A DNA stretch of 64,000 nt. It comes from Lachnospiraceae bacterium (lineage in GTDB: Bacteria; Bacillota; Clostridia; Lachnospirales; Lachnospiraceae). The DNA lies in assembly GCA_015057825.1 (NCBI GenBank), contig SVDN01000002.1, positions 16,044 to 80,043 of the forward strand, read 5' to 3'. This document shows positions 12,856 through 57,635 of this stretch, one piece after another. Under the pieces are notes generated by a model, which was given only the letters and a program-made list of their open reading frames with translations, had not been told where the DNA came from and ran no database searches. The translations under genes were made by a program, and so were the position numbers. The first letter of the stretch is position 1; each line of letters begins with the position of its first letter.

Positions 12856-12858
12856 ATT

Positions 12859-12930
12859 GTTCCCTTAGTTTAACGGATAAAACAAATGCCTCCTAAGCAT
12901 TAGCTGTGGGTTCGATTCCCGCAGGGAACG
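12859..12930 (+). tRNA. tRNA-Arg (anticodon CCT)
   Basis: Hand-folded cloverleaf. Acceptor GTTCCCT/AGGGAAC, anticodon arm AATGC-CTCCTAA-GCATT, T arm GTGGG-TTCGATT-CCCGC. 72 nt, no encoded CCA. Confidence 0.85.
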
Positions 12931-12953
12931 TATATATCGCATTTATGCGAAAA

Positions 12954-13001: not shown

Positions 13002-13053
13002 ATAAAAAATGCGCCTCCAGGGGCTCGAACCCTGCACACCCTGATTAAGAGTC
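13002..13053. repeat. attL: att direct repeat (left): duplicated 3' 44 nt of tRNA-Lys plus 8 nt
   Basis: ataaaaaatgcgcctccaggggctcgaaccctgcacaccctgattaagagtc is identical to 57412..57463. The tRNA 5' half is absent here. Confidence 0.85.
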
Positions 13054-13144: not shown

Positions 13145-14254
13145 TTACAGCTGATTTACACTTTGTTTTTCAGCATTGAAAATTTGATTTAATTTACTTT
13201 GTGTCTGCTCACGTTCTTCGTCTAAATGGCTATATACTTCTAAAACCATTTTTGTATCTGCGTGTCCCAAGAGCTTGGCTGTTTCCTTAATACTTACACC
13301 GCCGTAGTAAAGTAAGCAACAATAGTTGTGACGTAATATATGAGGTGTGATATCAGTTAAAATAAGATGTTCATTTCCGCCCATTGCAGCATTAACCTTT
13401 TTTATAATATTAGTCTGAAGAACTCTAAAAGCACTTTTTGTTATAATACTGCCGTCAGCGCAGGTAAATAGATACAATCCCTTATTCTTTTTTAAATATA
13501 GCTTTAAGACTTCTTGTAAAGCTTCCGGCATTGGAACACTTCTATTACCGGCTTTACTTTTTGGATCTTTTAAAATTGCATCATTTCCAACATAAGTTAT
13601 TGCTTTGTTAACAGTTAAAAGTCCGGTTTTAAAATTAATATCCTTACGTGTAAGAGCTAACGCTTCTCCTCTTCTTAATCCGCAGTAATAAAGTATCAAA
13701 ATAAAGGCTTTTTCTCTTTCTGTAAAATCTGCAGACAGTATAGCAGCTGTTTCTTCTTTGGTTAATGCGCGCTTTTTTGATTCTTTTTTCTTTGGCTTAT
13801 CGATACCTTTACAAACGTTTCGTGATAAGATTTCTTCTTCGCAGCCAAATTCTAAAATTTGCTTTATCGTTAAAACAATGATTTCGCAGGTTCGTTGTTT
13901 CGCATAGTTTTCATTAACCAGGTTTTGAATATCTGACTTTTGAACATCTTTTAATTTTAGCATTCCCAGGCTTGGAAGTAGATAATTGTTAACGGCAGAT
14001 TGGTACATATCATATGTTTTTGGTGACTTATTAGCCTTAAACAACTTCAGCCATCGATTTGCATAGTCTCCAAATAAAACATCTGAGCTTCTGAGATAAG
14101 ATGTTTTATTTAAAAGAACCTCGGCTTTTTTTCGTTCAAGCTCATTTTTGGATTTAGCATAAAGATGCTTATATATTTTTTTGCCTTTTTTATCATAGCC
14201 GATAAAAACAGCTGTTTCATACCTTCCGTCTTTTCGTTTAGAATAATGCGGCAT
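13145..14254 (-). CDS. int: Tyrosine-type site-specific integrase
   Basis: C-terminal catalytic region HILRHNYCCLLYYGG...LLGHADTKMVLEVYSH (HxxR, H, Y). LRRGEALAL arginine box. Adjacent to the att repeat. Confidence 0.9.
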   Translation of the reverse strand: MPHYSKRKDGRYETAVFIGYDKKGKKIYKHLYAKSKNELERKKAEVLLNKTSYLRSSDVLFGDYANRWLKLFKANKSPKTYDMYQSAVNNYLLPSLGMLKLKDVQKSDIQNLVNENYAKQRTCEIIVLTIKQILEFGCEEEILSRNVCKGIDKPKKKESKKRALTKEETAAILSADFTEREKAFILILYYCGLRRGEALALTRKDINFKTGLLTVNKAITYVGNDAILKDPKSKAGNRSVPMPEALQEVLKLYLKKNKGLYLFTCADGSIITKSAFRVLQTNIIKKVNAAMGGNEHLILTDITPHILRHNYCCLLYYGGVSIKETAKLLGHADTKMVLEVYSHLDEEREQTQSKLNQIFNAEKQSVNQL

Positions 14255-15725: not shown

Positions 15726-16421
15726 TTAAAGAGATTTATTCTTCTTTAGGTTATTCGCTTTTGTTGTTCCTTCAAGGCAATTTTCAAAACACCAACTTGT
15801 AAGAAGATCTAAATCGTCGTCTTCGTAGTATTTTACAAGTAGTTCTTTAAAGATTCCGTCCTTTTCTACAGCTACATTAAATAAACCTTTGCCGTTTTCT
15901 ATTAGAATTTTATTAATAGCAAATGAACCAATTCGTTTATTTCCGTCTTTAAAAGGTTGTGTTTTCATAAGCCAAAGTCCGGTTTTAATAGCACGCTCTG
16001 TAATGCAAGGAATATTTGCCTTGTTTAACAGTTCAGAATGTATTAAATCTGCATTTGGCAAAGTTGGGCGCCATGAAGTACCGCTTATAATTACATCTTC
16101 TGTCCTTAGTTTTCCAAGATAAGAGTAAGGAACATCAAATCTGGCTACTATTTCATGTAATTCTTCTAAAAAGACTAAATCAAGTGGCTTGTTAAGATTA
16201 TTTAAAAGGTATTCCCAGCCGTCCTTAAGGCAACACACTTTATTAATTTCTGTTGGAGTCAAAGAAGCAACATTTATATTGTTAATAATATCTGTAGTTT
16301 GTGCAAATGTAACGGCAATTCCTTCAAGGTTAGCGGCCTTATAAACCGCATCAACAAGAGTTCTTTTTGCACAAAAAATGTTTTCTTCTTGTGTCATATC
16401 ATATATGTCGTTAAAAACCAT
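15726..16421 (-). CDS. Fic/Doc-fold protein with degenerate active-site motif
   Basis: QPFKDGNKRIGSFAIN aligns to Doc HxFxDxNKR / Fic HPFxxGNGR, but the catalytic His is Gln. Confidence 0.65.
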   Translation of the reverse strand: MVFNDIYDMTQEENIFCAKRTLVDAVYKAANLEGIAVTFAQTTDIINNINVASLTPTEINKVCCLKDGWEYLLNNLNKPLDLVFLEELHEIVARFDVPYSYLGKLRTEDVIISGTSWRPTLPNADLIHSELLNKANIPCITERAIKTGLWLMKTQPFKDGNKRIGSFAINKILIENGKGLFNVAVEKDGIFKELLVKYYEDDDLDLLTSWCFENCLEGTTKANNLKKNKSL

Positions 16422-23744: not shown

Positions 23745-24524
23745 ATGTTAAGTTCAAAAGAAATAAGTTTAAGCATTAAGCAACAGCTTTTAGAAGATTT
23801 CAGAATTAACAACAGAAAAGGACTTTATGCAATAACTCAAAAAATAATGGCATATAATTCAAACAAAATTGAAGGAAGTACACTAACATCCGAGCAGACA
23901 GCGTCCTTATTCGATACAGGAACACTTGTATCTAATGGTGTTGAGGTATATAAAGCAAAAGACATTGAAGAAATGAATGGACACTTTAAGATGTTTAACG
24001 AAATGCTAAAAAAAATTGATGATCCTTTAACAGAAGAATTAATTATGTCGTTTCATTATCAGCTTAAAAATGGTGTTTTTGAAGATATGGCCAACGGATA
24101 CCCGATTGGAGCATATAAAAACAAGGCAAATATCGTATCTGATATTATAACGGTACCACCTGAAGATGTGCCTATGCAAATGAAGAAATTAATTGATAAT
24201 TATAATAATTCAGAGAAGAAACTAATAGACATTATAGAATTTCATGCAAAATATGAGAGTATTCATCCGTTTCAAGATGGCAATGGCAGGACCGGAAGAA
24301 TGATTATGTTTAAACAATGTATCAACAGTGGAGAAATACCAATTATTATTCAAGATGAAACGAAGAGTGTTTATTATAATGCTCTTCATCGGGCACAGGT
24401 TGATAAAGACTATAGTCTGTTATTAGATTATTGTAAAGAGTGTCAAGATTTGTATTTGGAAAGAATAAAAGTATTTGTTGATAATAGTATAATCAATAAT
24501 AAACCAAAACTAAAAAAAAAATAA
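23745..24524 (+). CDS. fic: Fic-domain protein (AMPylase-type), class with N-terminal inhibitory motif
   Basis: Canonical HPFQDGNGRTGR. N-terminal SNKIEG fits the (S/T)xxxE(G/N) inhibitory helix. Confidence 0.9.
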   Translation: MLSSKEISLSIKQQLLEDFRINNRKGLYAITQKIMAYNSNKIEGSTLTSEQTASLFDTGTLVSNGVEVYKAKDIEEMNGHFKMFNEMLKKIDDPLTEELIMSFHYQLKNGVFEDMANGYPIGAYKNKANIVSDIITVPPEDVPMQMKKLIDNYNNSEKKLIDIIEFHAKYESIHPFQDGNGRTGRMIMFKQCINSGEIPIIIQDETKSVYYNALHRAQVDKDYSLLLDYCKECQDLYLERIKVFVDNSIINNKPKLKKK

Positions 24525-24561: not shown

Positions 24562-25698
24562 ATGAGCAGTATATATTTATTGATGAATAAAGACAATCCG
24601 ATAATTGAGTTTTCGCTGGAAAGCGGAATGTTGGATTATGTTTGCAAAGAAACAAACCGTTATAAAGATAATCTTCCGTGCTGGTTAAATGATATTGATG
24701 CATGGGTAGAATCAAGAAATTATGCAAAGCACAAAGAGCATTTCAAAAAATGGCTTAAAGAGTGGGGAATAGATAATAAGAAGGGCTTTATTGAAATAAC
24801 ACATGCATTGGGCTTAAATGATACATTATGGATAAAAGGAAAATCATCAAAGCTTACATGGGAAGAAGTAAATTTATATAATAATGAGTTTACTGACGTA
24901 GCTGAAAAAACGGCTTTTGAAACAGGACTTGCAGGCCTTAAACTTTCTTCATCTTCTCCGGAGATAACAGCGGAAGGAAGCTTTGAGAAGTGTTGGAAAA
25001 AACAACAAGATAACATTTATATATACAAAAAAGGATCTAGCGGATTTGCCAACGCCGGCTTAGAACCTTATTCTGAATTTTATGCATCTCAAATTGCAAA
25101 GACTTTTGATAAGAAAGCAGTTCAATATGATTTAGAAATGTATAAGGGCAGCCTGTGTACAAGGTGTGGAATGTTCACGTCTGAAGATGTAGGGTTTGTT
25201 CCTTTTTATAAGTATCATATTGGTGAAAATACTACAATGCAAAAAGTGTTTGAAGCATGTAAAGAGTTAGGATATGAAGCAGAATTTAGAAAAATGATAG
25301 TATTTGATTCTATTATTTTTAATCCGGATCGCCACACCGGAAACTTCGGATATCTAATTGATAATGAGACGTTCGAAATAAAAGCGTTCTCGCCACTATT
25401 TGATTATAACTACAGCCTTTTATGCAGAGCTATGTCAGATGATTTTGAAAATATCGAAGCTTATTTAGACACACAGGGGCATAAACTTGGCGGTTCTTAT
25501 GAATATGTGGCAAAAGCCTTTATGAGTGCTGAGTGTGAAGATATAATTGAAAGCCTGGGAACAATAAGATTTCAAAGACACAATAAATACAATCTTGAGG
25601 AAAAAAGGTTGGAGACGCTTGAAAGAATTTTAAACAAGCAAGCCAAAAGCCTTATAAAAAGAAATAATTATAGTAATAAAAAAGGAAAAAGATTATAA
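24562..25698 (+). CDS. HipA-like Ser/Thr kinase family protein
   Basis: Catalytic-loop-like IIFNPDRHTGNFGYL and downstream PLFDYNYSL (HipA_C pattern). Confidence 0.7.
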   Translation: MSSIYLLMNKDNPIIEFSLESGMLDYVCKETNRYKDNLPCWLNDIDAWVESRNYAKHKEHFKKWLKEWGIDNKKGFIEITHALGLNDTLWIKGKSSKLTWEEVNLYNNEFTDVAEKTAFETGLAGLKLSSSSPEITAEGSFEKCWKKQQDNIYIYKKGSSGFANAGLEPYSEFYASQIAKTFDKKAVQYDLEMYKGSLCTRCGMFTSEDVGFVPFYKYHIGENTTMQKVFEACKELGYEAEFRKMIVFDSIIFNPDRHTGNFGYLIDNETFEIKAFSPLFDYNYSLLCRAMSDDFENIEAYLDTQGHKLGGSYEYVAKAFMSAECEDIIESLGTIRFQRHNKYNLEEKRLETLERILNKQAKSLIKRNNYSNKKGKRL

Positions 25699-42619: not shown

Positions 42620-43648
42620 ATGAAAAAAGATAATTTAAACGAACAAAAGGACAACATGAAAGAAAAATCTACATTAAGACAAAAGCTGGATAAGATAGAC
42701 GAGTTTTTCTTTAAAAAGCATTTTAAATTGACATCAGTAATAATTGCTGCCATGTTTGCTGCGGTAATTATTGTGCTTGCTTACGGAAAATATGTTAACA
42801 ACAATATTCTTGAGGAAGAAAAAGTCCAGGGAATAATCGATGCGCGTGTACCACAGGAAGAAGGAGATCGTACCAGCAAACAGATAGTACACGGAACAAT
42901 TGAAGATACAGAAACCGGGCAGAAGATCACAACAAAAGACGGTCGTGTTTATTTAATTGAAAACGGCGCATTTTATCAGCTTGAAGCGGATGGCAGCAAA
43001 ACAAAGCTCACAAACGATTTAAGCCTGGTAACTGTATATGATGATAAAGGAGATAAAAACACCGTAGTTGACGGAAGACTTGTTGCAGAAGTAAAGGCTG
43101 AAGAAGAAACCACTACACCGGCTGCAGTACCTGCAGAACAAACAGTTGGTGAGGCAGTAGTTGCTCCGGAAGAACAGCAGGTAGATATCGGGGAAGATGT
43201 CGGAGTAACACAGCCGCCACAAACAGATCTTCCGTGGATCTATCCTTATCCGACACAGACTGGATATTATAAAAATGATGAAGTTGGATGGGCAAAAAAC
43301 GTGCCGCATGGAAACAATGTTGGATTTACAGCAGAGCAAATTGCAAGAATGGATGAGCTGGCATGGGCAGTAGCAACAAATGCAATTGATGAAGATGAGT
43401 TTGATGCACAAGTTGCAGCGCTTTTTGGTAAGGGCGAGCTAGCACCGGGCTTATGGGATGTTCAAACGAGTATATGGAGACCTGTCAAATTAACAGTAAC
43501 GGAAGTTCAAGAAAAAATTGCAACACAAGGATATTATTATGATTATGGGTATAACGAGGAGCAACCGGGATACGTGAAAGCAATAGTTTATTATGATGCT
43601 GGTACAGATACGGCATACCTTACGTTAGTTTCAGATTGGGGAGAATAA
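42620..43648 (+). CDS. Membrane-anchored extracellular protein
   Basis: Single TM (LTSVIIAAMFAAVIIVLAY), acidic/Pro-Thr linker, aromatic-rich C-terminal domain. Confidence 0.45.
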   Translation: MKKDNLNEQKDNMKEKSTLRQKLDKIDEFFFKKHFKLTSVIIAAMFAAVIIVLAYGKYVNNNILEEEKVQGIIDARVPQEEGDRTSKQIVHGTIEDTETGQKITTKDGRVYLIENGAFYQLEADGSKTKLTNDLSLVTVYDDKGDKNTVVDGRLVAEVKAEEETTTPAAVPAEQTVGEAVVAPEEQQVDIGEDVGVTQPPQTDLPWIYPYPTQTGYYKNDEVGWAKNVPHGNNVGFTAEQIARMDELAWAVATNAIDEDEFDAQVAALFGKGELAPGLWDVQTSIWRPVKLTVTEVQEKIATQGYYYDYGYNEEQPGYVKAIVYYDAGTDTAYLTLVSDWGE

Positions 43649-43652
43649 AACA

Positions 43653-45626
43653 ATGCTTATGGTTATAAAAGAATTGTCAAAATTTAAGGCTTTGATTGTT
43701 ATAGTTATGTTTTTTGCTGTCATTTTTGCCTTGCCGAGTGTAAAAACATATGCAGCACCGGGGTGGTATGCGGAAAATGCCTATGCCTATGATACAAAAG
43801 GAAATATAGCTATTCCGTCAAGTGCAAGTAAAGGTGGAACAGCTGCCACAAGGTTTGCAACTGTAGGATATAGAATTACTTTTGGAAGTTATAACCAGTA
43901 TTATGTGGATTTAGCAAAAAATAAGTATTATACAATGTATGGTGGATTACAAACACCTGAAATAACGGTAGCTGCAAGCCGCCAAGGAGTAACAGAAATT
44001 GCATATGCAGAAGAAGGAAATACTGCATTTAGCTTGTTCCTCGTTGATTATAGTACATTTCTTCGTGCCGTTGTCGGCAAATATGGTGCCGGATCTGATG
44101 CATATAATTATATTTCTGCACCTACAAGTGGAACAAGAACAGTAAGACTTTATCTTGATCCGATAATGACAAGTGCTCATATATCTGATTACGGCCAAAG
44201 TGTATGGCTTGCAAGTGGTCAAGCTCATGTTGATAGCAGATATCAGATTGCCTGGGATACCGGTAATTATTATGGCACAAGAGATGGAATGCTTTATTAT
44301 TGGGGAACATTAACAGGTAATTACAGTAATCAAGATATTTATTATTCATATGGCAAATACGTTGATATTTATATAGACTCAGGGACTCAGAAGTATACGC
44401 AAACAACTTATCATCAGAAAAAAAGTGCACAGACAGGTAAATATCTAAGCGCGTTTAAAACCGTCAAGGAAGATATTCAATATGGAGCAAGATACACTCC
44501 GGCATATACAACAGTTCCAACCGGCTATGTAAAAGGTGGCATAACCGCTGCATATGATGTAACAGGTGCACATACAAACTATGCTTACTACAACCCTATA
44601 AGCTATACGGTTAATTATCAGCCAAATGGTGCAACCGGTGGCTCCATGAACTATTCAACCTATTGGTATGACTGGTCTCAGCCTTTGAGTAAAAACCAAT
44701 ATGAAAGAAAGTATACGGTAAACTTTGATGGATCACTTGGAGAAGTTGAAACCGATAGTTTGACTGCTGTATATGATTTTAATGGTTGGAATCTAAGAAC
44801 AGACGGAAAAGGTCAAAGCTTTACGGACGGACAAAATATATTAAATTTGACTTCAACCAATAATGCAAAGATAGATATGTATGCACAGTGGACGCCAAAC
44901 GGAATAACACTTCCTAAGGCAGCAAGGGAAGGTGGTTATGAATTTCTTGGATGGTCAACTTCAAACGAAAAAACTGTTATCTATGACAAGGAAACAGAAG
45001 AGCTGCCAACATTAAAAGAAGGCGATTACTACATTCCAACAAAGAATGAAACATTGTACGCCGTATACTATGCTATACCGCCAACGGTATGGGCTCCGGA
45101 GAAAGAGCTTGATTATGGCGATGAAATGACAGAGTATTGGCTTTTATACGATTCAACCGCTGAAGACGCAACCGGAAAGGATATATCGGAAGATGTATTT
45201 ATTTCTGATTTAGGCGGCTTGCAGCTTAATATATATAATCCTTACAAATATTATGATGTAGAATATTGTGCCGTTGCTCCAAACGGTGCAAAAGGCTATT
45301 ATACGGCGAAAATAAGGGTGACATACAGATATGTACGCTACATATCGGCAGAATATATAGATACCCTGGAGCCGGATAGTAAATGGTTGACTGATCCTAA
45401 GCTTTATGCAGAACTTGTTGACTGCTTAAATACGGAAAGAGATCCGGTGCAGATTTGGGAGTTTTCAAATGAAGATAGGTTAAACATACAAAGATACATG
45501 ACAACACACGCACCTTCGAGAGAAGCCATTGATTGGTTTTTGGAAAACTACTCAGACAGAAAAGTTTATGAAGATTTAGGACAGGCTTATTTTAACGGAG
45601 TGAAAGGAAGTGAACTTGGATATTGA
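43653..45626 (+). CDS. Secreted surface protein with Listeria-Bacteroides-type repeat (adhesin candidate)
   Basis: Signal peptide ending VKTYA/AP. YTVNYQPNGATGG...FNGWN...MYAQW and GYEFLGWSTS...LYAVY fit the InlB-B/Flg_new repeat pattern. Confidence 0.55.
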   Translation: MLMVIKELSKFKALIVIVMFFAVIFALPSVKTYAAPGWYAENAYAYDTKGNIAIPSSASKGGTAATRFATVGYRITFGSYNQYYVDLAKNKYYTMYGGLQTPEITVAASRQGVTEIAYAEEGNTAFSLFLVDYSTFLRAVVGKYGAGSDAYNYISAPTSGTRTVRLYLDPIMTSAHISDYGQSVWLASGQAHVDSRYQIAWDTGNYYGTRDGMLYYWGTLTGNYSNQDIYYSYGKYVDIYIDSGTQKYTQTTYHQKKSAQTGKYLSAFKTVKEDIQYGARYTPAYTTVPTGYVKGGITAAYDVTGAHTNYAYYNPISYTVNYQPNGATGGSMNYSTYWYDWSQPLSKNQYERKYTVNFDGSLGEVETDSLTAVYDFNGWNLRTDGKGQSFTDGQNILNLTSTNNAKIDMYAQWTPNGITLPKAAREGGYEFLGWSTSNEKTVIYDKETEELPTLKEGDYYIPTKNETLYAVYYAIPPTVWAPEKELDYGDEMTEYWLLYDSTAEDATGKDISEDVFISDLGGLQLNIYNPYKYYDVEYCAVAPNGAKGYYTAKIRVTYRYVRYISAEYIDTLEPDSKWLTDPKLYAELVDCLNTERDPVQIWEFSNEDRLNIQRYMTTHAPSREAIDWFLENYSDRKVYEDLGQAYFNGVKGSELGY

Positions 45627-46057
45627 TGAACAAAGTTATACTGATAGGAAGACTTACGAGAGATCCTGATGTTAGATATACATCAGGGGAAGACGGTGTA
45701 TGCGTAGCACGTTTTTCTTTAGCTGTAGATCGCAGATATAAAAAAGATGGAGATGCACAGACAGCAGATTTTCCGTCTTGTGTTGCATTTAGAAAGACCG
45801 GCGAATTTATCGAAAAATACGCGAAAAAGGGAACAAAGCTCTGCATTGAAGGTCGTCTGCAGACCGGTTCTTATACGAATAAGGACGGTGTTAAAGTATA
45901 CACAACAGATGTTGTGGTTGAAAACTGCGAGTTTGCGGAAAGTAAAGTTGCAGCAGGTGGTAGCAGTGAGGAAGGTGCGCCGGAGCCAACTGTAGATTCG
46001 GATGGTTTTATGAATATACCGGATGGATTAGACGACGAAGGCTTGCCTTTTAACTAA
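45623..46057 (+). CDS. ssb: Single-stranded DNA-binding protein
   Basis: MNKVILIGRLTRDPDVRYT OB-fold N-terminus. Acidic tail DDEGLPFN. Confidence 0.9.
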   Translation: MMNKVILIGRLTRDPDVRYTSGEDGVCVARFSLAVDRRYKKDGDAQTADFPSCVAFRKTGEFIEKYAKKGTKLCIEGRLQTGSYTNKDGVKVYTTDVVVENCEFAESKVAAGGSSEEGAPEPTVDSDGFMNIPDGLDDEGLPFN

Positions 46058-46068
46058 GAGGTGAAAAA

Positions 46069-46443
46069 ATGCGTGCAGCACTAATGGGAATATGTTTTAT
46101 ATTTATCTTTGGCTTTAGCACCATAACACAGTGCGTAATAACGGATGTGGCTACCAGGTGTGATGAAGTTAAAATGACTTTTGACGATTCCGTAAGAGAC
46201 ACGATGCAAGCCATGCTTTGCACAAAAGCTTACTCTATAGACGAAATCGATGATTTCATGGCGGATTTTATCGAAACATTTATGTTTGAAAATAGTGCAA
46301 ACAGTAAGTTTAAAATTGAAGTTAGCAGCATCGATGCCGAGGCCGGCATTGCCAATGTACAGGTATCATCTTATTTTAAAGTAGCAAGTGGCAAATGGAA
46401 ACAAATTACTGTTGAAAATGCGGTTGTATTTAACCAATGGTAA
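46069..46443 (+). CDS. Small protein with N-terminal hydrophobic segment (pseudopilin-like?)
   Basis: MRAALMGICFIFIFGFSTI then a soluble domain. Located just upstream of the Tad-type ATPase. Confidence 0.35.
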   Translation: MRAALMGICFIFIFGFSTITQCVITDVATRCDEVKMTFDDSVRDTMQAMLCTKAYSIDEIDDFMADFIETFMFENSANSKFKIEVSSIDAEAGIANVQVSSYFKVASGKWKQITVENAVVFNQW

Positions 46444-46462
46444 ACAGAAAGGAAGTGAAAAA

Positions 46463-46651
46463 ATGGGACACTTATTTCATCAGTTCAGAGGTGTGTTTAT
46501 CGCTGTAATAATTGCAATTATCATTTTGGTCATGGCGTTAGCAGTTGGTGCTTGGTTCAAGAGTAATACCACAAAGCAGCTTAACAGCTTTGATGCTATT
46601 ATTGATGAGCAAATGCAAGAAGTTAATGCGTACAAAGAAACAGGAGAATAG
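46463..46651 (+). CDS. Small single-TM protein (62 aa)
   Basis: ATG after AAAGGAAGTGA. FRGVFIAVIIAIIILVMALAVGAWF. Confidence 0.35.
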   Translation: MGHLFHQFRGVFIAVIIAIIILVMALAVGAWFKSNTTKQLNSFDAIIDEQMQEVNAYKETGE

Positions 46652-46654
46652 GAA

Positions 46655-47689
46655 ATGACAAATATATTGGAAAATTTAGATCTATCCGAAATCGAAGAGT
46701 TTCTTGAAGACGAAAACGTAACAGACATTGATTGGAATGGCGAAGATCTGTGGACAGACAACATTGTGCTTGGCCGGGTAAAACAAGAAAAGAAGTTAAG
46801 CGCTGAGTTTGTTGAAGGGCTTACAACCAAAATAGGCAATTCGCAGAATAAAACCTTAAATAAGCATAATCCGGTTCTGGAAGCAGAATCGGATACTTTA
46901 AGGTTTTCCATACTTCATGAAGAAATTACAGGCGGCCTTAGAAGCGTTTCAATAAGAAAAACGCCGGCAACAATGAGACTTTCAAAAGAAATGCTTATTG
47001 AAACAGGGTATATAACAGAGCCGCTTTTTAATTTTTTTGAAAATGCAATAAAAGCGCATTGCACTATTGTTATATGTGGTCTTCCGGCAGTTGGAAAAAC
47101 AGAATTTTTAAAGCTTCTTACCAATACTATACCGCCTTATGAGAGGGTAATAACAATAGAAGATAGGAAGGAAATCCATTACAAGCAGATTAATCCGGGA
47201 AAGGATTGTGTAGAGGTAAAGATAAGTCCAACACTTGATTTTCCTTCTGCTATATCGTTTGCATTGAGCCATAATGCCAAGTGGACTATTCTTTCCGAAG
47301 CAAGAGGTGCTGAGGTAGAATATCTTATGAATAATCTTTCTTCCGGTACATTTTGCCTTACAACGCTACATACAAACGATGTAAGGAAGATCCCGGATAG
47401 GTTGGCTAATATGTTGCCGGGCGGTGAGGAACATACACGTTTTATAAATGACGTTTATGATTTTATTGATATTGGTGTTTTGATTACTTCAAAAATTCAA
47501 AACGGTAAAAGTATTACAAGACGTATCGAACAAGTCGGACTCTTTTCAAGAGAACACGGTCAAAACCAGGTTTCGATGATTTATGATGACAACAAATTTA
47601 TCGCGGAGAATTTATCGCCGGAGATCGTAAGAAAGTTTATGAAAGCCGGCATAAAAAACCCTTATGTTGCATCCAAAGGAGAAGATTAA
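46655..47689 (+). CDS. T2SS/T4P/T4SS-family secretion ATPase (CpaF/TadA/VirB11-like)
   Basis: Walker A ICGLPAVGKTEF. Walker B/Asp box TILSEARGAE. His box TTLHTN. 344 aa. Confidence 0.8.
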   Translation: MTNILENLDLSEIEEFLEDENVTDIDWNGEDLWTDNIVLGRVKQEKKLSAEFVEGLTTKIGNSQNKTLNKHNPVLEAESDTLRFSILHEEITGGLRSVSIRKTPATMRLSKEMLIETGYITEPLFNFFENAIKAHCTIVICGLPAVGKTEFLKLLTNTIPPYERVITIEDRKEIHYKQINPGKDCVEVKISPTLDFPSAISFALSHNAKWTILSEARGAEVEYLMNNLSSGTFCLTTLHTNDVRKIPDRLANMLPGGEEHTRFINDVYDFIDIGVLITSKIQNGKSITRRIEQVGLFSREHGQNQVSMIYDDNKFIAENLSPEIVRKFMKAGIKNPYVASKGED

Positions 47690-49164
47690 TGAATAAATTT
47701 ATTGCGAAGATTGAAAGTTTGGGTTATACGTTTTCGCCTGGAACACTTATATTAATTGCCGTAATAGTTGAGGCTTTTACAGTGGGAGTGTCTTTTCTTT
47801 ATTTGTTACACTTGCCATTTGCAATAGCTCTTATGGTTTTGGGAATATTGGTTGTTCCTTCGGTATATTACTCAAGAACCAGGTATAAATACGAAGAAAA
47901 TCGCTTTTCTGCGTTATGCACATATATGGAACAGATGTGTTATTCATTTCAGACTATGCCAAAAATTTACAATGCGTTAAAAGAAACATATACTATTTTA
48001 CCTTCCGGTGAAATGAAAGCAGCTGTTAGCGCCGCTATAAAGTATTTTGAAGTGGAAAACGGCACGTATGCTGATGCCTTGAACATCATTGAGTCACGTT
48101 TTTTGTGCAAAAAACTGGCTAAATTACATAGATTTTTTATAAAAATCGAAGAAGAGGGCGGCGATTATAAATACGCATTAGGACTACTGTTAACAGATAT
48201 ATTAAAGTGGCGTGAGCGTGTACAGCTTTACCAGCAGGAAAAGAAGACATTAAAGGTAGCTTATGTGCTTGCGATAATCTTTTCATCTATCGCATGCGCA
48301 TTTGCAACACTTCTTGCAGTTGTAGGAAAAAAAGAAGGAGATCTTCTTACGACATTCTTAGATATAACCGGTGTTCCGGTATATCAGATGATAGCCTTTG
48401 TATTTATAGCAGCGTGTATTATATCATTTTATTTTATAGAAAAACGATATACAAACAGTTGGATAGAGGATAAGAAATATACAAAGTATGAGCTTATTGA
48501 CTACGACATAAGTATTAATTATGACTATATATCCGATACACGGAAAATGCTAATTCCGGCGGTTGTAATAGCCGGCGGCTCAGTGATTTTATCATTACTT
48601 TTTACGCCACTATGTTTAATTGGTTTGATTCTGGCTATTCTATTAATTGCAACGCCAAGGATAAAATACCAGGGCGCAAGACAAAGAACTGTTTCGGAGC
48701 TTAAGGCGGCTTTTTCGGAGTGGCTTGTGGATCTTGAATTAAACTTACAATTTTATAATAACCACAAAGCAATTGAAAAGTCTTTGGATTCAGCCCCGGA
48801 AATTTTGAAAAAACCGATAAAACAACTAATATTGGATATTAATGATAACTTATCGGGAATAGAACCGTTTAATAACTTTCTTGGAGAGTTTGACATCGAA
48901 GAGGTTCGCTCATCGATGCGCATGGTCTATTCCATGAAAGATTTAAATTCGGAAAACACATCAGAACTTCTTTCAACGATTGTTGATAGGAACTATGTGC
49001 TTATGGATCAGACGGAAGCGGAAAAAAATAAAACGAAAATAAGCAATCTTAAAATGCTTATTTTAACGCCTGCAGGTTTTGGAATTTTTAAACTTTCCGC
49101 AGATTTAATGATCTTTGCTGCAACTTTCTTTAATGGAATGTCAGACGTTTCACAGTTTATGTAG
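47689..49164 (+). CDS. Polytopic membrane protein, possible TadB/TadC (GspF-type) platform
   Basis: Translationally coupled to the ATPase (TAATG). Alternating TM pairs and cytoplasmic helical regions. Family not verified. Confidence 0.4.
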   Translation: MNKFIAKIESLGYTFSPGTLILIAVIVEAFTVGVSFLYLLHLPFAIALMVLGILVVPSVYYSRTRYKYEENRFSALCTYMEQMCYSFQTMPKIYNALKETYTILPSGEMKAAVSAAIKYFEVENGTYADALNIIESRFLCKKLAKLHRFFIKIEEEGGDYKYALGLLLTDILKWRERVQLYQQEKKTLKVAYVLAIIFSSIACAFATLLAVVGKKEGDLLTTFLDITGVPVYQMIAFVFIAACIISFYFIEKRYTNSWIEDKKYTKYELIDYDISINYDYISDTRKMLIPAVVIAGGSVILSLLFTPLCLIGLILAILLIATPRIKYQGARQRTVSELKAAFSEWLVDLELNLQFYNNHKAIEKSLDSAPEILKKPIKQLILDINDNLSGIEPFNNFLGEFDIEEVRSSMRMVYSMKDLNSENTSELLSTIVDRNYVLMDQTEAEKNKTKISNLKMLILTPAGFGIFKLSADLMIFAATFFNGMSDVSQFM

Positions 49165-49173
49165 GGGGTTATT

Positions 49174-49269
49174 ATGCACAATTTATTTGAAGAGTTATCT
49201 GCGTTTATGTTTGTCCCGGTCATTGTTGCGGCAATCATTGTCTTTGCGAGAATAATGATGTCGGTATAG
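49174..49269 (+). CDS. 31-aa hydrophobic peptide (pilin-like candidate)
   Basis: MHNLFEELSAFMFVPVIVAAIIVFARIMMSV. RBS GGGGG 6 nt upstream. Confidence 0.3.
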   Translation: MHNLFEELSAFMFVPVIVAAIIVFARIMMSV

Positions 49270-49280
49270 AGAGGTAGTTT

Positions 49281-49418
49281 ATGTCATATTTATATGAACA
49301 CTTTAGCAAGTTTATAGTAACCATAATTGGCGCTGTAGGTGTAATAATCGGAGCCATAATAATTTATTTGAATTTGGATTCGATTTTAAGCTTCTTTACG
49401 AAAGGATTTTTAGGATAA
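49281..49418 (+). CDS. 45-aa hydrophobic peptide
   Basis: MSYLYEHFSKFIVTIIGAVGVIIGAIIIYL... RBS GAGAGG. Stop overlaps the next start (TAATG). Confidence 0.3.
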   Translation: MSYLYEHFSKFIVTIIGAVGVIIGAIIIYLNLDSILSFFTKGFLG

Positions 49419-49756
49419 TGAGAAACATAATTGAAGGATTTATTATTATTCTTTTTATTGGTTTTATTGCGTATGCATCTCTAGGTTTCATCAATATGAA
49501 TAACCAAACAGCAGATGCAAGGGGCTTTTTAGAGTCTGCAGTAACGGATATAGAAAGAAGCGGGTTTTCTGATACGGTAATAGGCGCCTGGCAAGATAAA
49601 GCACAAGATTGCGGATATGAGCTTGTAGCGTCTGATGCATCAACGACAATTATTGATAAAAAGAAACATTGTATTGAAATACAGCTTAAATATACAGCAA
49701 ACAATCCATTCTTTAGAATTAAGGAACAAAGCACGATTAAGGAATATGCGAGGTAG
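49418..49756 (+). CDS. N-terminally anchored small protein (pseudopilin-like)
   Basis: MRNIIEGFIIILFIGFIAYASLGF then a soluble domain. In the Tad-like cluster. Confidence 0.4.
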   Translation: MRNIIEGFIIILFIGFIAYASLGFINMNNQTADARGFLESAVTDIERSGFSDTVIGAWQDKAQDCGYELVASDASTTIIDKKKHCIEIQLKYTANNPFFRIKEQSTIKEYAR

Positions 49757-49759
49757 AAT

Positions 49760-50551
49760 ATGGGCAAGTTTATAAAAGAGTATAGTGCCGTTGCAGTCGC
49801 AGTTATTGTTTCAATATTTATATTGATAGCGGCAACCAACGCATCAAAGTCTGTTAGCAACGTATCTGAAAAACAGACGGCTGCGCTTGAAAACAATGCT
49901 GCGGCTTGGCAGGTTGGTGATTCTGCAGATTTTGAAACTGTAGGAGAACTTACAGACGTAGAACAAACACAGTTAGATGCAATGCAAGCCAAGTTGGATG
50001 CAATGCAAGAGCAAATAGATAACTTTGAAGGATTTGACTTGGATAAAGCTTATCCTATTGGTTCAATTTACATTACTATGTCTTCAGCAGATCCCGCAGA
50101 TCTTATGGGTGGAACCTGGGAAAGAATGGAAGACAGAGAGTTAATTGGAGCCGGTAATCTATATACTGTTGGAAGCGAGCAAGGTAGCAGCTCCGTTAAG
50201 TTGGCAGCTACGCAGATTCCTTCTTTATCGGTAAGTGGCAGTACCAATAGTGCCGGAGCACATACTCATGTTATTGGTATGGGACCTGCCAAATGGAATT
50301 ATGGCAGTCAAGCCTGGTATTCTGATACTGTAGGGCCACCAAACCAACTTTTTGCGCCATATGGATATGGTATGGGAAGTGGTGGTCCAACAACACACGC
50401 AGGTTATTATAACCAATCAAATGGTACAAGTACATATTCTTCCGGGACTCATACACACACAGTAACAGCAAAATATACAAACAACAATCAAACATCGGTC
50501 AGTGTAATGGATCCAACCATAGCAGTTTACATGTGGAAGCGTGTTGCCTAG
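49760..50551 (+). CDS. Membrane/pilin-anchored protein with phage tail-collar-like receptor-binding domain, copy 1
   Basis: N-terminus MGKFIKEYSAVAVAVIV (G-x4-EY + hydrophobic helix). C-terminal YPIGSIYITMSSADPADLMGGTWERMEDRELIG and HxH motifs (AHTHV, THTHT), as in Gram-positive phage tail fibre/collar proteins. Confidence 0.6.
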   Translation: MGKFIKEYSAVAVAVIVSIFILIAATNASKSVSNVSEKQTAALENNAAAWQVGDSADFETVGELTDVEQTQLDAMQAKLDAMQEQIDNFEGFDLDKAYPIGSIYITMSSADPADLMGGTWERMEDRELIGAGNLYTVGSEQGSSSVKLAATQIPSLSVSGSTNSAGAHTHVIGMGPAKWNYGSQAWYSDTVGPPNQLFAPYGYGMGSGGPTTHAGYYNQSNGTSTYSSGTHTHTVTAKYTNNNQTSVSVMDPTIAVYMWKRVA

Positions 50552-50635
50552 ATTATATAGTCGCTAGTTAAAAAAGAATGTAGTATTCTTGTTGATTCTT
50601 TAATATAATAAAAGAAAAAATATATTTTCGAAAGG
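49760..50635. repeat. Duplicated segment, copy 1 (gene + downstream 65 bp)
   Basis: Near-identical to 51098..51975. The first ~130 bp are more diverged, then only a few substitutions. The ~20 bp after each stop codon differ. Confidence 0.85.
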
Positions 50636-50649
50636 AACAAGATACAAAT

Positions 50650-50826
50650 ATGCTCGTAGAAAATACAAAAGAAAATAGGGAATTACAGGAAGCGGTAGCA
50701 ACGCTAGCAATTGAAGATATGTTTGTAGAGGAAGCATTTTTGAATGAATTAATGCAAGTTTCAGAAGGAAAAAAAACGACGGAAGAGCTTAGGAGAGAGG
50801 TTATTAAAAAGTATGCAAGACGTTAA
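50650..50826 (+). CDS. VbhA-like antitoxin of a class I Fic module (58 aa)
   Basis: MLVENTKENRELQEAVATLAIEDMF... has TLAIED, resembling the (S/T)xxxE(G/N) inhibitory motif. Overlaps the fic start by 14 nt. Confidence 0.5.
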   Translation: MLVENTKENRELQEAVATLAIEDMFVEEAFLNELMQVSEGKKTTEELRREVIKKYARR

Positions 50827-51097
50827 ATACTGTTATCCTAACTCAGATGTTTTAAAAAACAAGTTAAACATTAGAAACTCAGAAGATTTATATGAGGCAG
50901 AAAAAGAACTGACATTAATTCGAATAAAGGAGCTTCAAGCGCGTCCGCTGATGGGAAAATTTGACTTTCAGCATTTAAAAAATATCCATAAATATATATT
51001 TCAAGATTTATATGAATGGGCTGGTGAGGTCAGAACTGTTGAAATTGGAAAAGGCAATCTTTTTTGTACAACAGCATGTATAAACGAATACGCTAAA
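50813..51097 (+). pseudogene. 5' fragment of a class I fic (FicT/VbhT-like) gene, fused in frame to tail-collar copy 2
   Basis: YCYPNSDVLKNKLNIRN...IHKYIFQDLYEWAGEVRTVEIGKG is the Fic N-terminal region. The ORF never reaches an HPFxxGNGR motif. Confidence 0.6.
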
Positions 51098-51889
51098 ATG
51101 GGCAAGTTTATTAAAGAGTACAGTGCTGTTGCAGTCGCAGTTATTGTGGCAATAATAATATTGATAGCGGCAGGTAACGCATCAAACTCTGTTCGTAACT
51201 TATCTGAGAAGCAGACAGCAGCACTTGAAAAAAATGCTGCGGCTTGGCAGGTTGGGGATTCTGCAGATTTTGAAACTGTAGGAGAACTTACAGACGTAGA
51301 ACAAACACAGTTAGATGCAATGCAAGCCAAGTTGGATGCAATGCAAGAGCAAATAGATAACTTTGAAGGATTTGACTTGGATAAAGCTTATCCTATTGGT
51401 TCAATTTACATTACTATGTCTTCAGCAGATCCCGCAGATCTTATGGGTGGAACCTGGGAAAGAATGGAAGACAGAGAGTTAATTGGAGCCGGTAATCTAT
51501 ATACTGTTGGAAGCGAGCAAGGTAGCAGCTCCGTTAAGTTGGCAGCTACGCAGATTCCTTCTTTATCGGTAAGTGGCAGTACCAATAGTGCCGGAGCACA
51601 TACTCATGTTATTGGTATGGGACCTGCCAAATGGAATTATGGCAGTCAAGCCTGGTATTCTGATACTGTAGGGCCACCAAACCAACTTTTTGCGCCATAT
51701 GGATATGGTATGGGAAGTGGTGGTCCAACAACACACGCAGGTTATTATAACCAATCAAATGGTACAAGTACATATTCTTCCGGGACTCATACACATACAG
51801 TAACAGCAAAATATACAAACAACAATCAAACATCGGTCAGTGTTATGGATCCAACCATAGCAGTTTATATGTGGCAGCGTGTTGCCTAG
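51098..51889 (+). CDS. Tail-collar-like protein, copy 2 (may be translated alone or as a Fic-N fusion)
   Basis: Same 263-aa architecture as 49760..50551. The internal ATG 51098 aligns with the copy 1 start. Confidence 0.55.
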   Translation: MGKFIKEYSAVAVAVIVAIIILIAAGNASNSVRNLSEKQTAALEKNAAAWQVGDSADFETVGELTDVEQTQLDAMQAKLDAMQEQIDNFEGFDLDKAYPIGSIYITMSSADPADLMGGTWERMEDRELIGAGNLYTVGSEQGSSSVKLAATQIPSLSVSGSTNSAGAHTHVIGMGPAKWNYGSQAWYSDTVGPPNQLFAPYGYGMGSGGPTTHAGYYNQSNGTSTYSSGTHTHTVTAKYTNNNQTSVSVMDPTIAVYMWQRVA

Positions 51890-51975
51890 AAGTAGTTCAA
51901 CCGACATCTTAAAAAAGAATATAGTATTCTTGTTGATTCTTTAATATAATAAAAGATAAGATATATTTTCGAAAG
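51098..51975. repeat. Duplicated segment, copy 2
   Basis: See copy 1. Confidence 0.85.
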
Positions 51976-52056
51976 AAAGCGTGTCGATGTAATTACGAAA
52001 GAAGAAGCTTTGCGCATAATGCCAAAAACTATAGAAAGGGAAAAAGGTTCTTATAT

Positions 52057-52305
52057 ATGAACGAAAACACTAGAACAAGCAATGTCGAAGAAATGTTGCC
52101 TTCTTTTTTAAAAGAATCTATTGATAAGTTTGTAGAAGGAAAAATGAAAAGCGAAGCCGACAAAAGCTATATGCAGTTTGACTGTGATTATTGCGAGCTG
52201 CAAAGTGATATAAATGTTGCGGAAGTGGAAGGAATTATTTCATCGGAAGAAGCTTGGAATTTGAGAAAAAAATATTTAGGAATTAATAAGGGAACAATAG
52301 ATTGA
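52057..52305 (+). CDS. Hypothetical 82-aa protein coupled to a HipA-like gene
   Basis: Stop overlaps the next start (ATGA). Acidic. Confidence 0.45.
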   Translation: MNENTRTSNVEEMLPSFLKESIDKFVEGKMKSEADKSYMQFDCDYCELQSDINVAEVEGIISSEEAWNLRKKYLGINKGTID

Positions 52306-53216
52306 TGATTGATTTTTCAAAATGTGAACATAAAAATAAAACATATTCGGGTGCAAATGGTAGTAAGATTTCGGTTGTTTATGATAATGGGTTGTATATG
52401 CTTAAGTTTCCGTCAAGGGCACCAAGAAATGATGATATAAGCTATAGTAACAGCTGCTTCTCTGAATATCTAGGTTGCAAGATATTTAAGGAAATTGGTA
52501 TTCCTGTTCAAGACGTAGTTTTGGGAACATATACAACAAATAAAGGTAACGAGAAAATAGTTGTAGCTTGTAAGGATTTTGCCGTAAATGGCAAAGTATT
52601 ACAGGATTTCGGATCTTTAAAAAATCAAATTGTCGATTCTGAAAACAATGGATATGGAACGGAGCTAGAAGATATTAAGGAAACATTTGAGTTACAAACC
52701 ATTGTAGATCCTATAGAATTATCAAAAAGATTTTGGGATATGTTTATTGTTGATGCTTTAATTGGAAATTGGGATAGACATAACGGAAATTGGGGATTTC
52801 TTTACGACTCTATGGCTGACAAAAACGAGTTAGCACCTGTCTTTGATTGCGGAAGTAGTTTATATCCACAGTTGGATGAAGAAAAAATGAAGCATATCCT
52901 TGTGGATGGTAAGGAAATAAAAGCAAGAGTATATAATATCCCTACATCTGCAATAAGAATAAATAGCAAAAGAATTAACTATTATAATTTCATTCTTTCC
53001 GGAGAGGAAATGGGTTGTAATGATGCATTAAAACGTATTGTTCCTAATATTGATACAGACAAGATTTTTGATATTATTGACAATATGCCAATTATAGGTG
53101 ATGTACATAAAGATTTTTATAAGCAGATGTTAATACAAAGATATAATTTGATATTGGTAAAGTCGTATAAGAACTTAAACAAACTTTACAATATTAAGAA
53201 ACCAAAAAGATTATAG
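52302..53216 (+). CDS. HipA-like kinase family protein (short form)
   Basis: IGNWDRHNGNWGFLYD and LAPVFDCGSSL correspond to the HipA_C catalytic and Mg loops. Confidence 0.65.
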   Translation: MMIDFSKCEHKNKTYSGANGSKISVVYDNGLYMLKFPSRAPRNDDISYSNSCFSEYLGCKIFKEIGIPVQDVVLGTYTTNKGNEKIVVACKDFAVNGKVLQDFGSLKNQIVDSENNGYGTELEDIKETFELQTIVDPIELSKRFWDMFIVDALIGNWDRHNGNWGFLYDSMADKNELAPVFDCGSSLYPQLDEEKMKHILVDGKEIKARVYNIPTSAIRINSKRINYYNFILSGEEMGCNDALKRIVPNIDTDKIFDIIDNMPIIGDVHKDFYKQMLIQRYNLILVKSYKNLNKLYNIKKPKRL

Positions 53217-57411: not shown

Positions 57412-57463
57412 ATAAAAAATGCGCCTCCAGGGGCTCGAACCCTGCACACCCTGATTAAGAGTC
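57412..57463. repeat. attR: att direct repeat (right), overlapping the intact tRNA-Lys 3' part
   Basis: Identical 52-mer to 13002..13053. Confidence 0.85.
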
Positions 57464-57492
57464 AGGTGCTCTACCAAATGAGCTAGAGGCGC
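57420..57492 (-). tRNA. tRNA-Lys (anticodon CTT)
   Basis: Reverse complement folds as GCGCCTC-TA-GCTC..GAGC-A-CCTGA-CTCTTAA-TCAGG-GTGTG-CAGGG-TTCGAGC-CCCTG-GAGGCGC-A. 73 nt. Confidence 0.9.
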
Positions 57493-57635
57493 AAATCAAA
57501 TTAGCAAATGTTATTATATGATAAAGGGTCAAATAATGCAAGCACTTTTTTAGATTTTATGATATATTAATATTGTTAGACTTAATCTTAAAAATAATTC
57601 GGCAAAGGGCCGATTTTTATATTTCGGAGGAGAAA

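Follow-up and report, generated by a model that had tools for sequence, protein, structure and literature searches.

The window analysed here, a stretch of 64,000 nucleotides from a Lachnospiraceae bacterium (GenBank assembly GCA_015057825.1, contig SVDN01000002.1, positions 16,044 to 80,043 of the forward strand), contains an integrative and conjugative element (ICE) in which one gene, at 49760-50551, joins a pilin-like N-terminus through a helical linker to a receptor-binding-type head of the kind found on phage baseplates and tail fibres. This gene, the target of the analysis, closes an operon that encodes a secretion ATPase, a polytopic protein resembling the platform proteins of type IV filaments and several very small proteins that begin like the target itself. 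At a probability of about 0.5, we read the protein as a modular subunit, either a minor pilin or an adhesin at the tip, of a Tad-like filament that is leaderless and uncharacterised; the PilV adhesin of IncI plasmids would be its analogue. The proposal goes back to a first reading of the DNA from its letters alone (the sequence-only reading), which had seen a phage receptor-binding module on a pilin-like anchor at the end of a Tad-like operon in an ICE.

The open reading frame (ORF) at 49760-50551 and its translation agree exactly with what that reading had reported, and the landmarks it had picked out are all there: MGKFIKEY followed by a hydrophobic stretch, a coiled-coil-like linker (DVEQTQLDAMQAKLDAMQEQIDNF, helical over residues 66-88 in the AlphaFold2 (AF2) model) and, towards the C-terminus, YPIGSIYITMSSADPADLMGGTWE together with two HxH motifs. 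An in-frame TAG lies two codons 5' of the ATG and the sequence GAGG stands 6 nt before it, so that ATG 49760 is the only possible start and the MG that precedes KFIKEY is the true N-terminus. Residues E7 and Y8 are followed by 17 hydrophobic residues, the single hydrophobic helix leaves a cytoplasmic stub of only 2 residues, and the AF2 model continues the helix over residues 8-50; about 65 residues separate the membrane helix from the head. Homologues likewise have a helical stretch at the position of the linker, before the YPxGSIY motif. The predicted local distance difference test (pLDDT) value of the whole model is 71, with 80-96 in the core of the head and values below 50 in the loop 175-221. 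The identical protein is found on 8 metagenome contigs from several samples. Megablast of window positions 43000-53000 against plasmid and phage collections gave no match, and promoter and terminator scans stayed at background level.

The C-terminal 170 residues are, well beyond chance, a phage baseplate or tail-fibre head of the receptor-binding type. Residues 94-262 match Gp10_C (PF21939), the C-terminal domain of the T4 baseplate protein gp10, with 68.1 bits where the gathering threshold is 27 (E 1.9e-18; the match spans profile positions 2-139 of 139), and PHROG returns tail protein, tail fibre and baseplate wedge families, the first two at E 1e-17 to 1e-11. A profile built from 85 homologues finds T4 gp10 in the Protein Data Bank (PDB; 5hx2_G, E 6e-14; 2fkk, E 1.4e-13) and also matches a phage structural protein, a long tail fibre and a tail fibre protein there. 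With the AF2 model as query, the best Foldseek matches in the PDB are gp10 of a Klebsiella phage and of T4 (probability 1.0, E 1.6e-4 to 1.8e-3), while in BFVD the model matches viral baseplate and Gp10_C proteins (E 5e-10) and, more weakly, proteins named 'tail collar' (E 6e-5 to 2.5e-3). The tail-fibre type of domain that had been recognised by eye, and for which a fold comparison had been suggested, is accordingly present both in sequence and in predicted fold, the latter embracing gp10 as well as viral baseplate, fibre and collar proteins; the family is Gp10_C and not Collar (PF07484), as first named, whose model gives no match to the target at E<=0.1. The histidines of the two HxH motifs (H168/H170 and H231/H233), which would hold a metal in a homotrimer of this family, occupy nearly invariant columns of the family, and the first of the three HxH motifs of the family is replaced by PSLSV in the target.

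Of the 376 homologues found, the majority are tail or baseplate proteins of phages; the N-terminal types were read among the best 120, and several of these place the same head on pilin-like starts. Four proteins (P0014, P0061, P0077 and P0099) carry a canonical type IV pilin start (KKGFTLIELLAVIV, PF07963) before Gp10_C, P0011 and P0065 have pseudopilin-like starts, and P0050 has a Flp-like one (KAEG/SVGTAIKLV). P0061 and P0077 are orphan genes among housekeeping genes and give no information on machinery, and the contig of P0011 ends 367 nt upstream of the gene; P0050 adjoins a 260-residue protein read as CpaB-like and a weak AAA_31 (TadZ-type) ATPase match. The sub-signature of the target head (PSLSV for the first HxH, together with YTNNNQT) occurs in 8 of the 120, all 8 with pilin-like starts, and one Gp10_C subtype appears to circulate among pilin scaffolds. 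The locus of P0050 (L057, 19-7650) encodes three large proteins with one Flp-like N-terminus (..TAIKVGT..), a 685-residue DUF6133 protein, a 362-residue LRR_5 protein and P0050 itself, which look like a set of alternative modular pilins. Other homologues (P0068, P0076, P0091, P0092 and P0119) have Sec signal peptides and a coiled-coil stretch and represent cellular secreted versions. Judged by these N-termini, the use of Gp10_C heads by cells is a repeated one.

The N-terminus of the target in turn has a start in common with the small pilin-like proteins of its operon, and the link to the ATPase cluster that the sequence-only reading had assumed is supported. Forty-five related loci, many of them labelled human gut, were fetched through the platform protein with a 10-sequence alignment. 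In every related operon with readable downstream sequence, 1-3 ORFs of 31-58 residues lie immediately 3' of the platform gene, and one further ORF of 57-68 residues lies directly 5' of the ATPase gene. These small proteins begin M-x-x-[IFL][IFLM]-[ED]-x-[YF]-G followed by a hydrophobic helix (MHDIIEHYGKVVVALAG, MKTIIEEYGNLILYVIAG and MKSFLEDYGLIIVAVIVV are examples), and proteins of 132-163 residues in the related operons have the same start; with the members from the window included, the consensus becomes M-x-x-φ-φ-(E/x)-x-(Y/F)-(G/S), then the hydrophobic helix. The motif stands at Met1 in 35 of 35 N-termini from other loci, longer possible ORFs having an internal Met exactly there, and position 2 is mostly H, K, N, D or Q and rarely Gly. 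A hidden Markov model (HMM) built from these 35 N-termini, with the window excluded, was run on the 1316 stop-to-stop ORFs of the window and ranked the 45-residue ORF of the operon first, the 31-residue ORF second, a second copy of the target third and the target itself (copy 1) fifth, all alignments starting at Met. That rank, position and operon should agree in this way can hardly be put down to chance. The 62-residue protein encoded just 5' of the ATPase gene was missed by the model and has diverged; by position it is the equivalent of the MHDIIEHYGK proteins (57-68 residues, 5' of the ATPase gene in related loci), the best conserved of the small proteins and the likely major subunit there, and it is itself a candidate for the major subunit. 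As a sequence, the motif looks like the leaderless mature end of a Flp pilin (..IEYG, then the helix).

This family start motif is the part of the proposed G-x4-EY prepilin signature that stands; the Gly proves incidental and there is no leader. The target might still be a true Flp-type prepilin that a host TadV/A24 peptidase encoded elsewhere cleaves after Gly2 and that polymerises in the canonical Tad manner: M-G/KFIK-EY followed by the hydrophobic helix is formally G/XXXXEY, the ATPase is related to CpaF/TadA, and the peptidase could lie outside the window. The rarity of Gly2 among the 35 family N-termini and the invariable position of the motif at Met1 nevertheless speak against such processing, as does the absence of an A24 prepilin peptidase candidate from the 64-kb window, whose three polytopic proteins include none that is peptidase-like; nor does Peptidase_A24 occur among the 25 listed of the 36 families to which 84 genes in the flanks of nine related loci gave matches. 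The Flp_Fap (PF04964) and TadE (PF07811) models match neither the target at E<=0.1 nor the small operon ORFs at E<=1, so that the assignment to the Flp/TadE prepilin family is not upheld, and Pfam as a whole returned nothing meaningful for the small ORFs and pseudopilin-like proteins. A 2-residue leader would be far shorter than any known to us, and we consider cleavage of the target as a prepilin very improbable. The flanking genes of the related loci also include two Rce1-like CAAX-type membrane proteases and one S26 signal peptidase, the only proteases seen that could act on the small proteins, should these be processed.

The string of genes to which the operon belongs is packed head to tail on the + strand between 42172 and 50551, the target coming last, 3 nt after the preceding stop. 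The terminal position claimed for it is supported, the operon also encoding a T2SSE-family ATPase and a PilC-like platform protein. The ATPase belongs to the VirB11/TadA/FlaI clade, its best relatives in the PDB being archaeal GspE, VirB11, CpaF and FlaI, and its stop codon overlaps the start of the platform gene at 47689. From its predicted fold and its repeat the 491-residue product of the latter is taken as a distant platform protein. PilC/GspF, or TadB plus TadC, consist of two homologous halves; the halves of the 491-residue protein are also homologous to each other (hhalign 86.5%, E 4.6e-6). Its AF2 model (pLDDT 93.6) has a PilC model as the top Foldseek match (3jc8_Ca, probability 0.99, E 0.04, template-modelling (TM) score TMq 0.28) and gives a TMt of 0.68 with the N-domain of PilC (2whn_B). 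T2SSF is the family most frequently matched by its relatives, sub-threshold in 9 of 68 members (best 1.5e-4); the platform profile gave no meaningful match to PDB sequences, the protein has no Pfam family, and NCBIfam returned nothing for it, for the target or for the neighbouring genes. An exhaustive profile search resolves the platform family into 767 clusters at 50% identity; a word-indexed search with the protein returned itself and one relative only, and when genome contigs were scanned for the ATPase, nothing came up but a Bdellovibrionales locus of 24% identity, which has no bearing on the operon. The ATPase and platform genes are adjacent in about 40 of the 45 related loci, that is, in every locus that reaches far enough upstream, the exceptions being contigs that start inside or just before the platform gene. 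In the literature searched for Tad-like or pilus systems on Gram-positive conjugative elements, no description of this ATPase/platform operon was found.

The surroundings of the related operons vary. In L018 (1-6100) and L023 (1-3800) the operon lies directly 3' of a prophage block of tail-fibre (Gp10_C, S74), holin and amidase genes, and the flanks of other related loci hold genes for a PIF1 helicase, NT5C and RuvC; it seems that mobile elements of several kinds carry the operon. The Gp10_C genes of L018 and L023 were considered as operon members and rejected, since their products have no hydrophobic N-termini and the genes sit within the prophage fibre/holin/amidase block. Large secreted surface proteins of 628-1611 residues accompany the operon in many loci (about 11000-16300 in L015, L018 and L023; 12519-17354 in L040; 10607-13303 in L039; 2268-4154 in L051) and may be filament-associated adhesins. 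The same gene string in the window includes a secreted surface protein of 657 residues, a homologue of which is encoded beside the related operon in L051 (E 4e-10). Two extra ATPase copies, partial or diverged, lie 3' of the operon in L009 (9340-12091; E 2e-38 and 3e-26), which suggests a local duplication or a second system.

The single hydrophobic helix, the cytoplasmic stub of 2 residues and the lack of both a leader and a peptidase candidate would also suit a protein that never enters a filament. The target would then be a membrane-anchored trimeric surface lectin with an uncleaved type II anchor (N-in, C-out), and the trimer, held in the donor membrane, would bind a cell-wall polymer of the donor or, in tight contact, of its partner and so position the conjugation machinery or hold it against the wall. 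Homologues with Sec signal peptides or transmembrane anchors (P0068, P0076, P0091 and P0092) indicate that the heads are used elsewhere without pilin parts, and copy 2, which is fused to 95 cytoplasmic residues, would keep the same topology. An anchor of this kind does not account for the match of the target's N-terminus to the position-specific start motif of the operon's small proteins, nor for its retention of the last operon position with a 3-nt gap, and the closest Gp10_C subtype is seen only on pilin-like N-termini among the best 120 of the 376 homologues. By our estimate, moreover, a spacer of about 65 residues is short for crossing a Gram-positive wall and would leave the head inside it. 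We judge the lectin rather unlikely, and continue with the minor pilin or tip adhesin as the preferred reading.

The element that carries the operon is an ICE, as had been supposed, and is cleanly delimited by attachment (att) repeats at a tRNA gene together with an integrase, a relaxase, a coupling protein and a VirB4-type ATPase. It measures about 44.4 kb and is inserted in the 3' end of tRNA-Lys(ctt). Its interior encodes a ParM-like protein, a Toprim protein, RepA_N and a MobA/VirD2 relaxase; the transfer genes comprise the type IV coupling protein (T4CP), PrgI, the VirB4-like ATPase and an NlpC/P60+M23 cell-wall hydrolase; and SSB, ArdC and DUF3846 are present as well. Outside lie housekeeping genes of the oriC region (mnmE, mnmG, parA, serS) and genes for AI-2E, TrmB and a penicillin-binding protein, and immediately beyond the left end comes a tRNA-Arg(cct) gene (12858-12931). 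DUF3881 and the human-gut labels of related loci suggest that the low-GC Gram-positive host belongs with Lachnospiraceae-like Clostridia. Two further Fic-domain genes and two genes for HipA-like kinases lie within the element (15726-16421 on the - strand; 23745-24524, 24562-25698 and 52302-53216 on the + strand), a load of toxin-type modules that is unusual for one element.

The second copy of the gene, 3' of the target, is not an independent paralogue but a derived duplicate fused to a truncated fic gene. The DNA identity of the two copies begins exactly at the ATG, the first 150 nt or so are diverged and the remainder is almost identical, and the repeat runs about 85 nt beyond the stop codon. 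Copy 2 lacks a ribosome-binding site and continues, as ORF 50813-51889, the reading frame of the fic fragment, whose residues 5-91 match PHROG 12747 (E 1.9e-26); a gene for a VbhA-like antitoxin precedes the fragment. The possibility that the fragment is a copy of the full-length fic gene of the ICE at 23745 was ruled out (BLASTP E 0.57). In a close relative (L001, protein P0002) the gene is single, there is no vbhA-fic' insert, and the downstream sequence continues like that which follows copy 2 in the window; therefore the single gene is ancestral, and the insert and the duplication are derived. From this comparison, the toxin-antitoxin module is one that was broken by the duplication or arrived with it. 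The two-copy arrangement is stable across several metagenome samples. The same relative reveals a hypervariable cassette between the HxH motifs: an unalignable segment of 143 nt takes the place of window positions 50271-50444, and the flanks are 94-98% identical at the DNA level. The cassette coincides with the low-pLDDT surface loop 175-221 of the AF2 model.

The local duplication and the truncated fic gene are signs of recent rearrangement, and with most of the 376 homologues being phage tail or baseplate proteins, and the L018 and L023 operons abutting prophage fibre, holin and amidase genes, recombination between phages and the operon is plausible. The target could on these grounds be a decaying or selfish prophage fragment, a tail-fibre gene brought into the ICE by recombination and without a role in transfer, or a protein for receptor masking or superinfection exclusion directed at phages with the same receptor. 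The ORF is, however, intact and has a ribosome-binding site, the identical protein recurs on 8 contigs from several samples, and its N-terminus is of the operon type and not a phage fibre shoulder; no other phage structural gene was found inside the ICE, and the cassette changes between strains without loss of the frame, which argues for selection. An origin as mere prophage debris, or a masking role, appears improbable to us.

What we infer for the target beyond its domains is a filament, a place at its tip, a trimeric state, a ligand and a role in transfer, which would be connected as follows. The ATPase and the platform protein would polymerise the small proteins into a thin filament across the cell wall, prepilin peptidase cleavage being dispensable, and the target would enter this filament, or its start, by means of the shared N-terminal helix. 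It would probably enter as a homotrimer and either prime the filament or cap it, the part that CofB plays in type IVb pili, and the phage head, trimeric in phages, would thereby be exposed at the filament tip. There it may bind a glycan on the surface of potential recipients, either a wall teichoic acid or a polysaccharide, and so stabilise mating pairs for the VirB4/T4CP channel of the ICE, in a Gram-positive counterpart of PilV and the IncI thin pilus. By the same analogy we infer that the head could select recipients. A wider claim, that the operon represents an undescribed, leaderless and peptidase-free branch of type IV filaments on the mobile elements of gut Firmicutes, with a trimeric phage-head cap in this case and a loop cassette that sets recipient range, we put forward only tentatively and as a somewhat doubtful extension.

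Several observations weigh against the filament and adhesin. Against VirB11/TrbB the ATPase scores no lower than against TadA/CpaF (NCBIfam VirB11 at 1.7e-25 and TadA-family conjugal-transfer-associated ATPase at 1e-18, both far below the cut-offs) and could be part of a type IV secretion system (T4SS). None of the small proteins, nor the platform protein or the target, reaches the threshold of a pilin or platform model in Pfam or NCBIfam, the filament and its assembly are predictions from the genes, and no characterised precedent for a leaderless, peptidase-free class of pilins was found in the literature searched. Within the N-terminal motif, the target has Lys at position 6 where the family has Glu or Asp and Ser at position 9 where the family has Gly, and the HMM E-values are weak (0.02-0.3), modest because the segment is short. 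The Foldseek TM-scores of the target's monomer model against gp10 are low (0.24-0.37). The related operons mostly have no T4SS genes within 8 kb, and the two in L018 and L023 adjoin tail and lysis genes of prophages. It follows that dedication to conjugation is no trait of the family as a whole; in general the filament system is an accessory of mobile elements and not a conjugation device in the strict sense.

With T4 gp10 and related phage heads (PF21939; 2FKK, 5HX2) the target has in common the frame YP(V/I)GSIY...GGTWE...HxH...P(Y)..VYMW(K)R and a helical, presumably trimeric stalk before the head; it differs in lying outside a virion gene set, in having a 27-residue membrane or pilin-like start in place of shoulder and stalk, and in the PSLSV subtype, which is seen only on pilin-like N-termini. 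The PilV adhesins of the IncI1/IncI2 thin pilus (R64, TP114) set recipient range and stabilise mating pairs in liquid or in the gut (PMC9045228). Like the target on the preferred reading, PilV is a minor subunit with a constant N-terminal part and a variable C-terminal binding part, encoded with accessory filament genes alongside the T4SS of a conjugative element; unlike it, PilV is a leader-bearing type IVb prepilin of Gram-negative hosts that varies by a shufflon, whereas the target comes from a Gram-positive host, has a leaderless, Flp-like N-terminus and a phage Gp10_C head, and varies by cassette exchange between strains.

Grafted binding modules on a pilin-type N-terminal helix define the modular pilins (PMC8179133), a survey of which lists in its Dataset S1 one pilin with tail-collar-superfamily domains that is not discussed there. 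CofB of enterotoxigenic Escherichia coli is a homotrimer that serves as initiator and tip of type IVb pili and bears a trimeric lectin head (PMC6048534), and the Tad pili of Myxococcus (Kil) have exchangeable minor-pilin tips (PMC12075869). The target resembles these proteins, and Streptococcus sanguinis PilB and PilC, in the graft itself; they differ from it in their class III signal peptides (IPR012902 or Flp type), in their globular pilin domain and in their dependence on a prepilin peptidase; the target consists of helix, linker and head only. With the Flp/Tad (type IVc) pili the operon has in common tiny subunits (31-68 residues) with E-Y-G and a hydrophobic helix, a motor of the TadA/VirB11/FlaI clade, a putative platform of two homologous halves (compare TadB plus TadC) and pseudopilin-like accessory proteins. 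Against this stand the lack of a leader, of a conserved cleavage Gly and of an A24 peptidase at the locus, the absence of Flp_Fap/TadE matches, T2SSF matches that stay sub-threshold, and the fact that no CpaB- or TadZ-like genes were seen in the operon. The components are each known (Gp10_C heads, modular pilins, Tad-like motors, ICEs); neither Pfam and NCBIfam nor the literature searched yielded their combination or the pilin-like family, which is apparently leaderless and peptidase-free.

Table 1. Coordinates of the target gene, its operon and the ICE in the 64,000-nucleotide window.
Feature	Position	Strand	Basis
Target gene, copy 1: 263-residue modular pilin-like protein with Gp10_C head	49760..50551	+	ORF, translation, PF21939 match
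Putative N-terminal assembly or anchor module (residues 1-27), MGKFIKEYS then hydrophobic helix	49760..49840	+	external N-terminal HMM, AF2
Helical, coiled-coil-like linker (residues 66-88), DVEQTQLDAMQAKLDAMQEQIDNF	49955..50023	+	AF2 helix 66-88, pLDDT 72-93
Gp10_C domain, phage baseplate or tail-fibre distal head (residues 94-263)	50039..50548	+	Pfam, PHROG, PDB profile, Foldseek, BFVD
Hypervariable cassette between HxH motifs (residues 171-229), 174 nt	50271..50444	+	exchanged in L001/P0002
657-residue secreted surface protein, same gene string	43653..45626	+	signal-peptide-like N-terminus; weak Listeria-Bacteroides repeat
124-residue protein, N-terminal hydrophobic helix	46069..46443	+	homologues in 9 related loci, E 2e-8 to 2e-6
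62-residue pilin-like protein, MGHLFHQFRG then hydrophobic helix, just 5' of ATPase	46463..46651	+	sequence, position
Secretion ATPase, VirB11/TadA/FlaI clade, 344 residues	46655..47689	+	Pfam T2SSE 2.9e-13
Putative polytopic platform protein, 491 residues, distant PilC/GspF/TadBC-like two-repeat	47689..49164	+	fold match, internal repeat, weak T2SSF
31-residue pilin-like ORF, MHNLFEELS then hydrophobic helix	49174..49269	+	rank 2/1316, external N-terminal HMM
45-residue pilin-like ORF, MSYLYEHFS then hydrophobic helix	49281..49418	+	rank 1/1316, external N-terminal HMM
112-residue pseudopilin-like protein, N-terminal hydrophobic helix	49418..49756	+	homologues 3' of platform gene in 11 related loci; no Pfam family
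VbhA-like antitoxin gene, 5' of truncated fic	50650..50826	+	Pfam VbhA 1.9e-3, below cut-off
Truncated fic gene (N-terminal 95 residues) fused to copy 2	50813..51097	+	Pfam Fic partial, profile 2-54/93
Copy 2 of the gene	51098..51889	+	97% protein identity to copy 1
Left att repeat of ICE	13002..13053	.	52-bp exact direct repeat, common to 57412-57463
Tyrosine integrase of ICE	13145..14254	-	Pfam Phage_integrase 8e-24
Right att repeat of ICE, over 3' end of tRNA-Lys(ctt)	57412..57463	.	52-bp exact direct repeat
tRNA-Lys(ctt)	57419-57493	-	

How Gram-positive donors find and hold their recipients is poorly understood, the known cases using aggregation substances or no adhesin, and no pilus-based mating-pair system like the IncI thin pilus was found for Gram-positive elements in the literature searched; the locus offers a concrete and testable candidate for recipient recognition in Gram-positive conjugation. 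Even on a cautious reading, the presence of Gp10_C on three kinds of pilin N-terminus and on Sec signal peptides makes an automatic 'phage' annotation of such proteins unwarranted. If the proposal is true, the host range of ICEs in gut Firmicutes would be readable from a cassette of 174 nt and could be re-engineered through it, and phages would share a single pool of receptor-binding modules with conjugative elements. There would also be a large family of leaderless, Flp-like filaments whose platform and small subunits have no above-threshold models in Pfam or NCBIfam, and the view that all type IV filaments need a prepilin peptidase would change.

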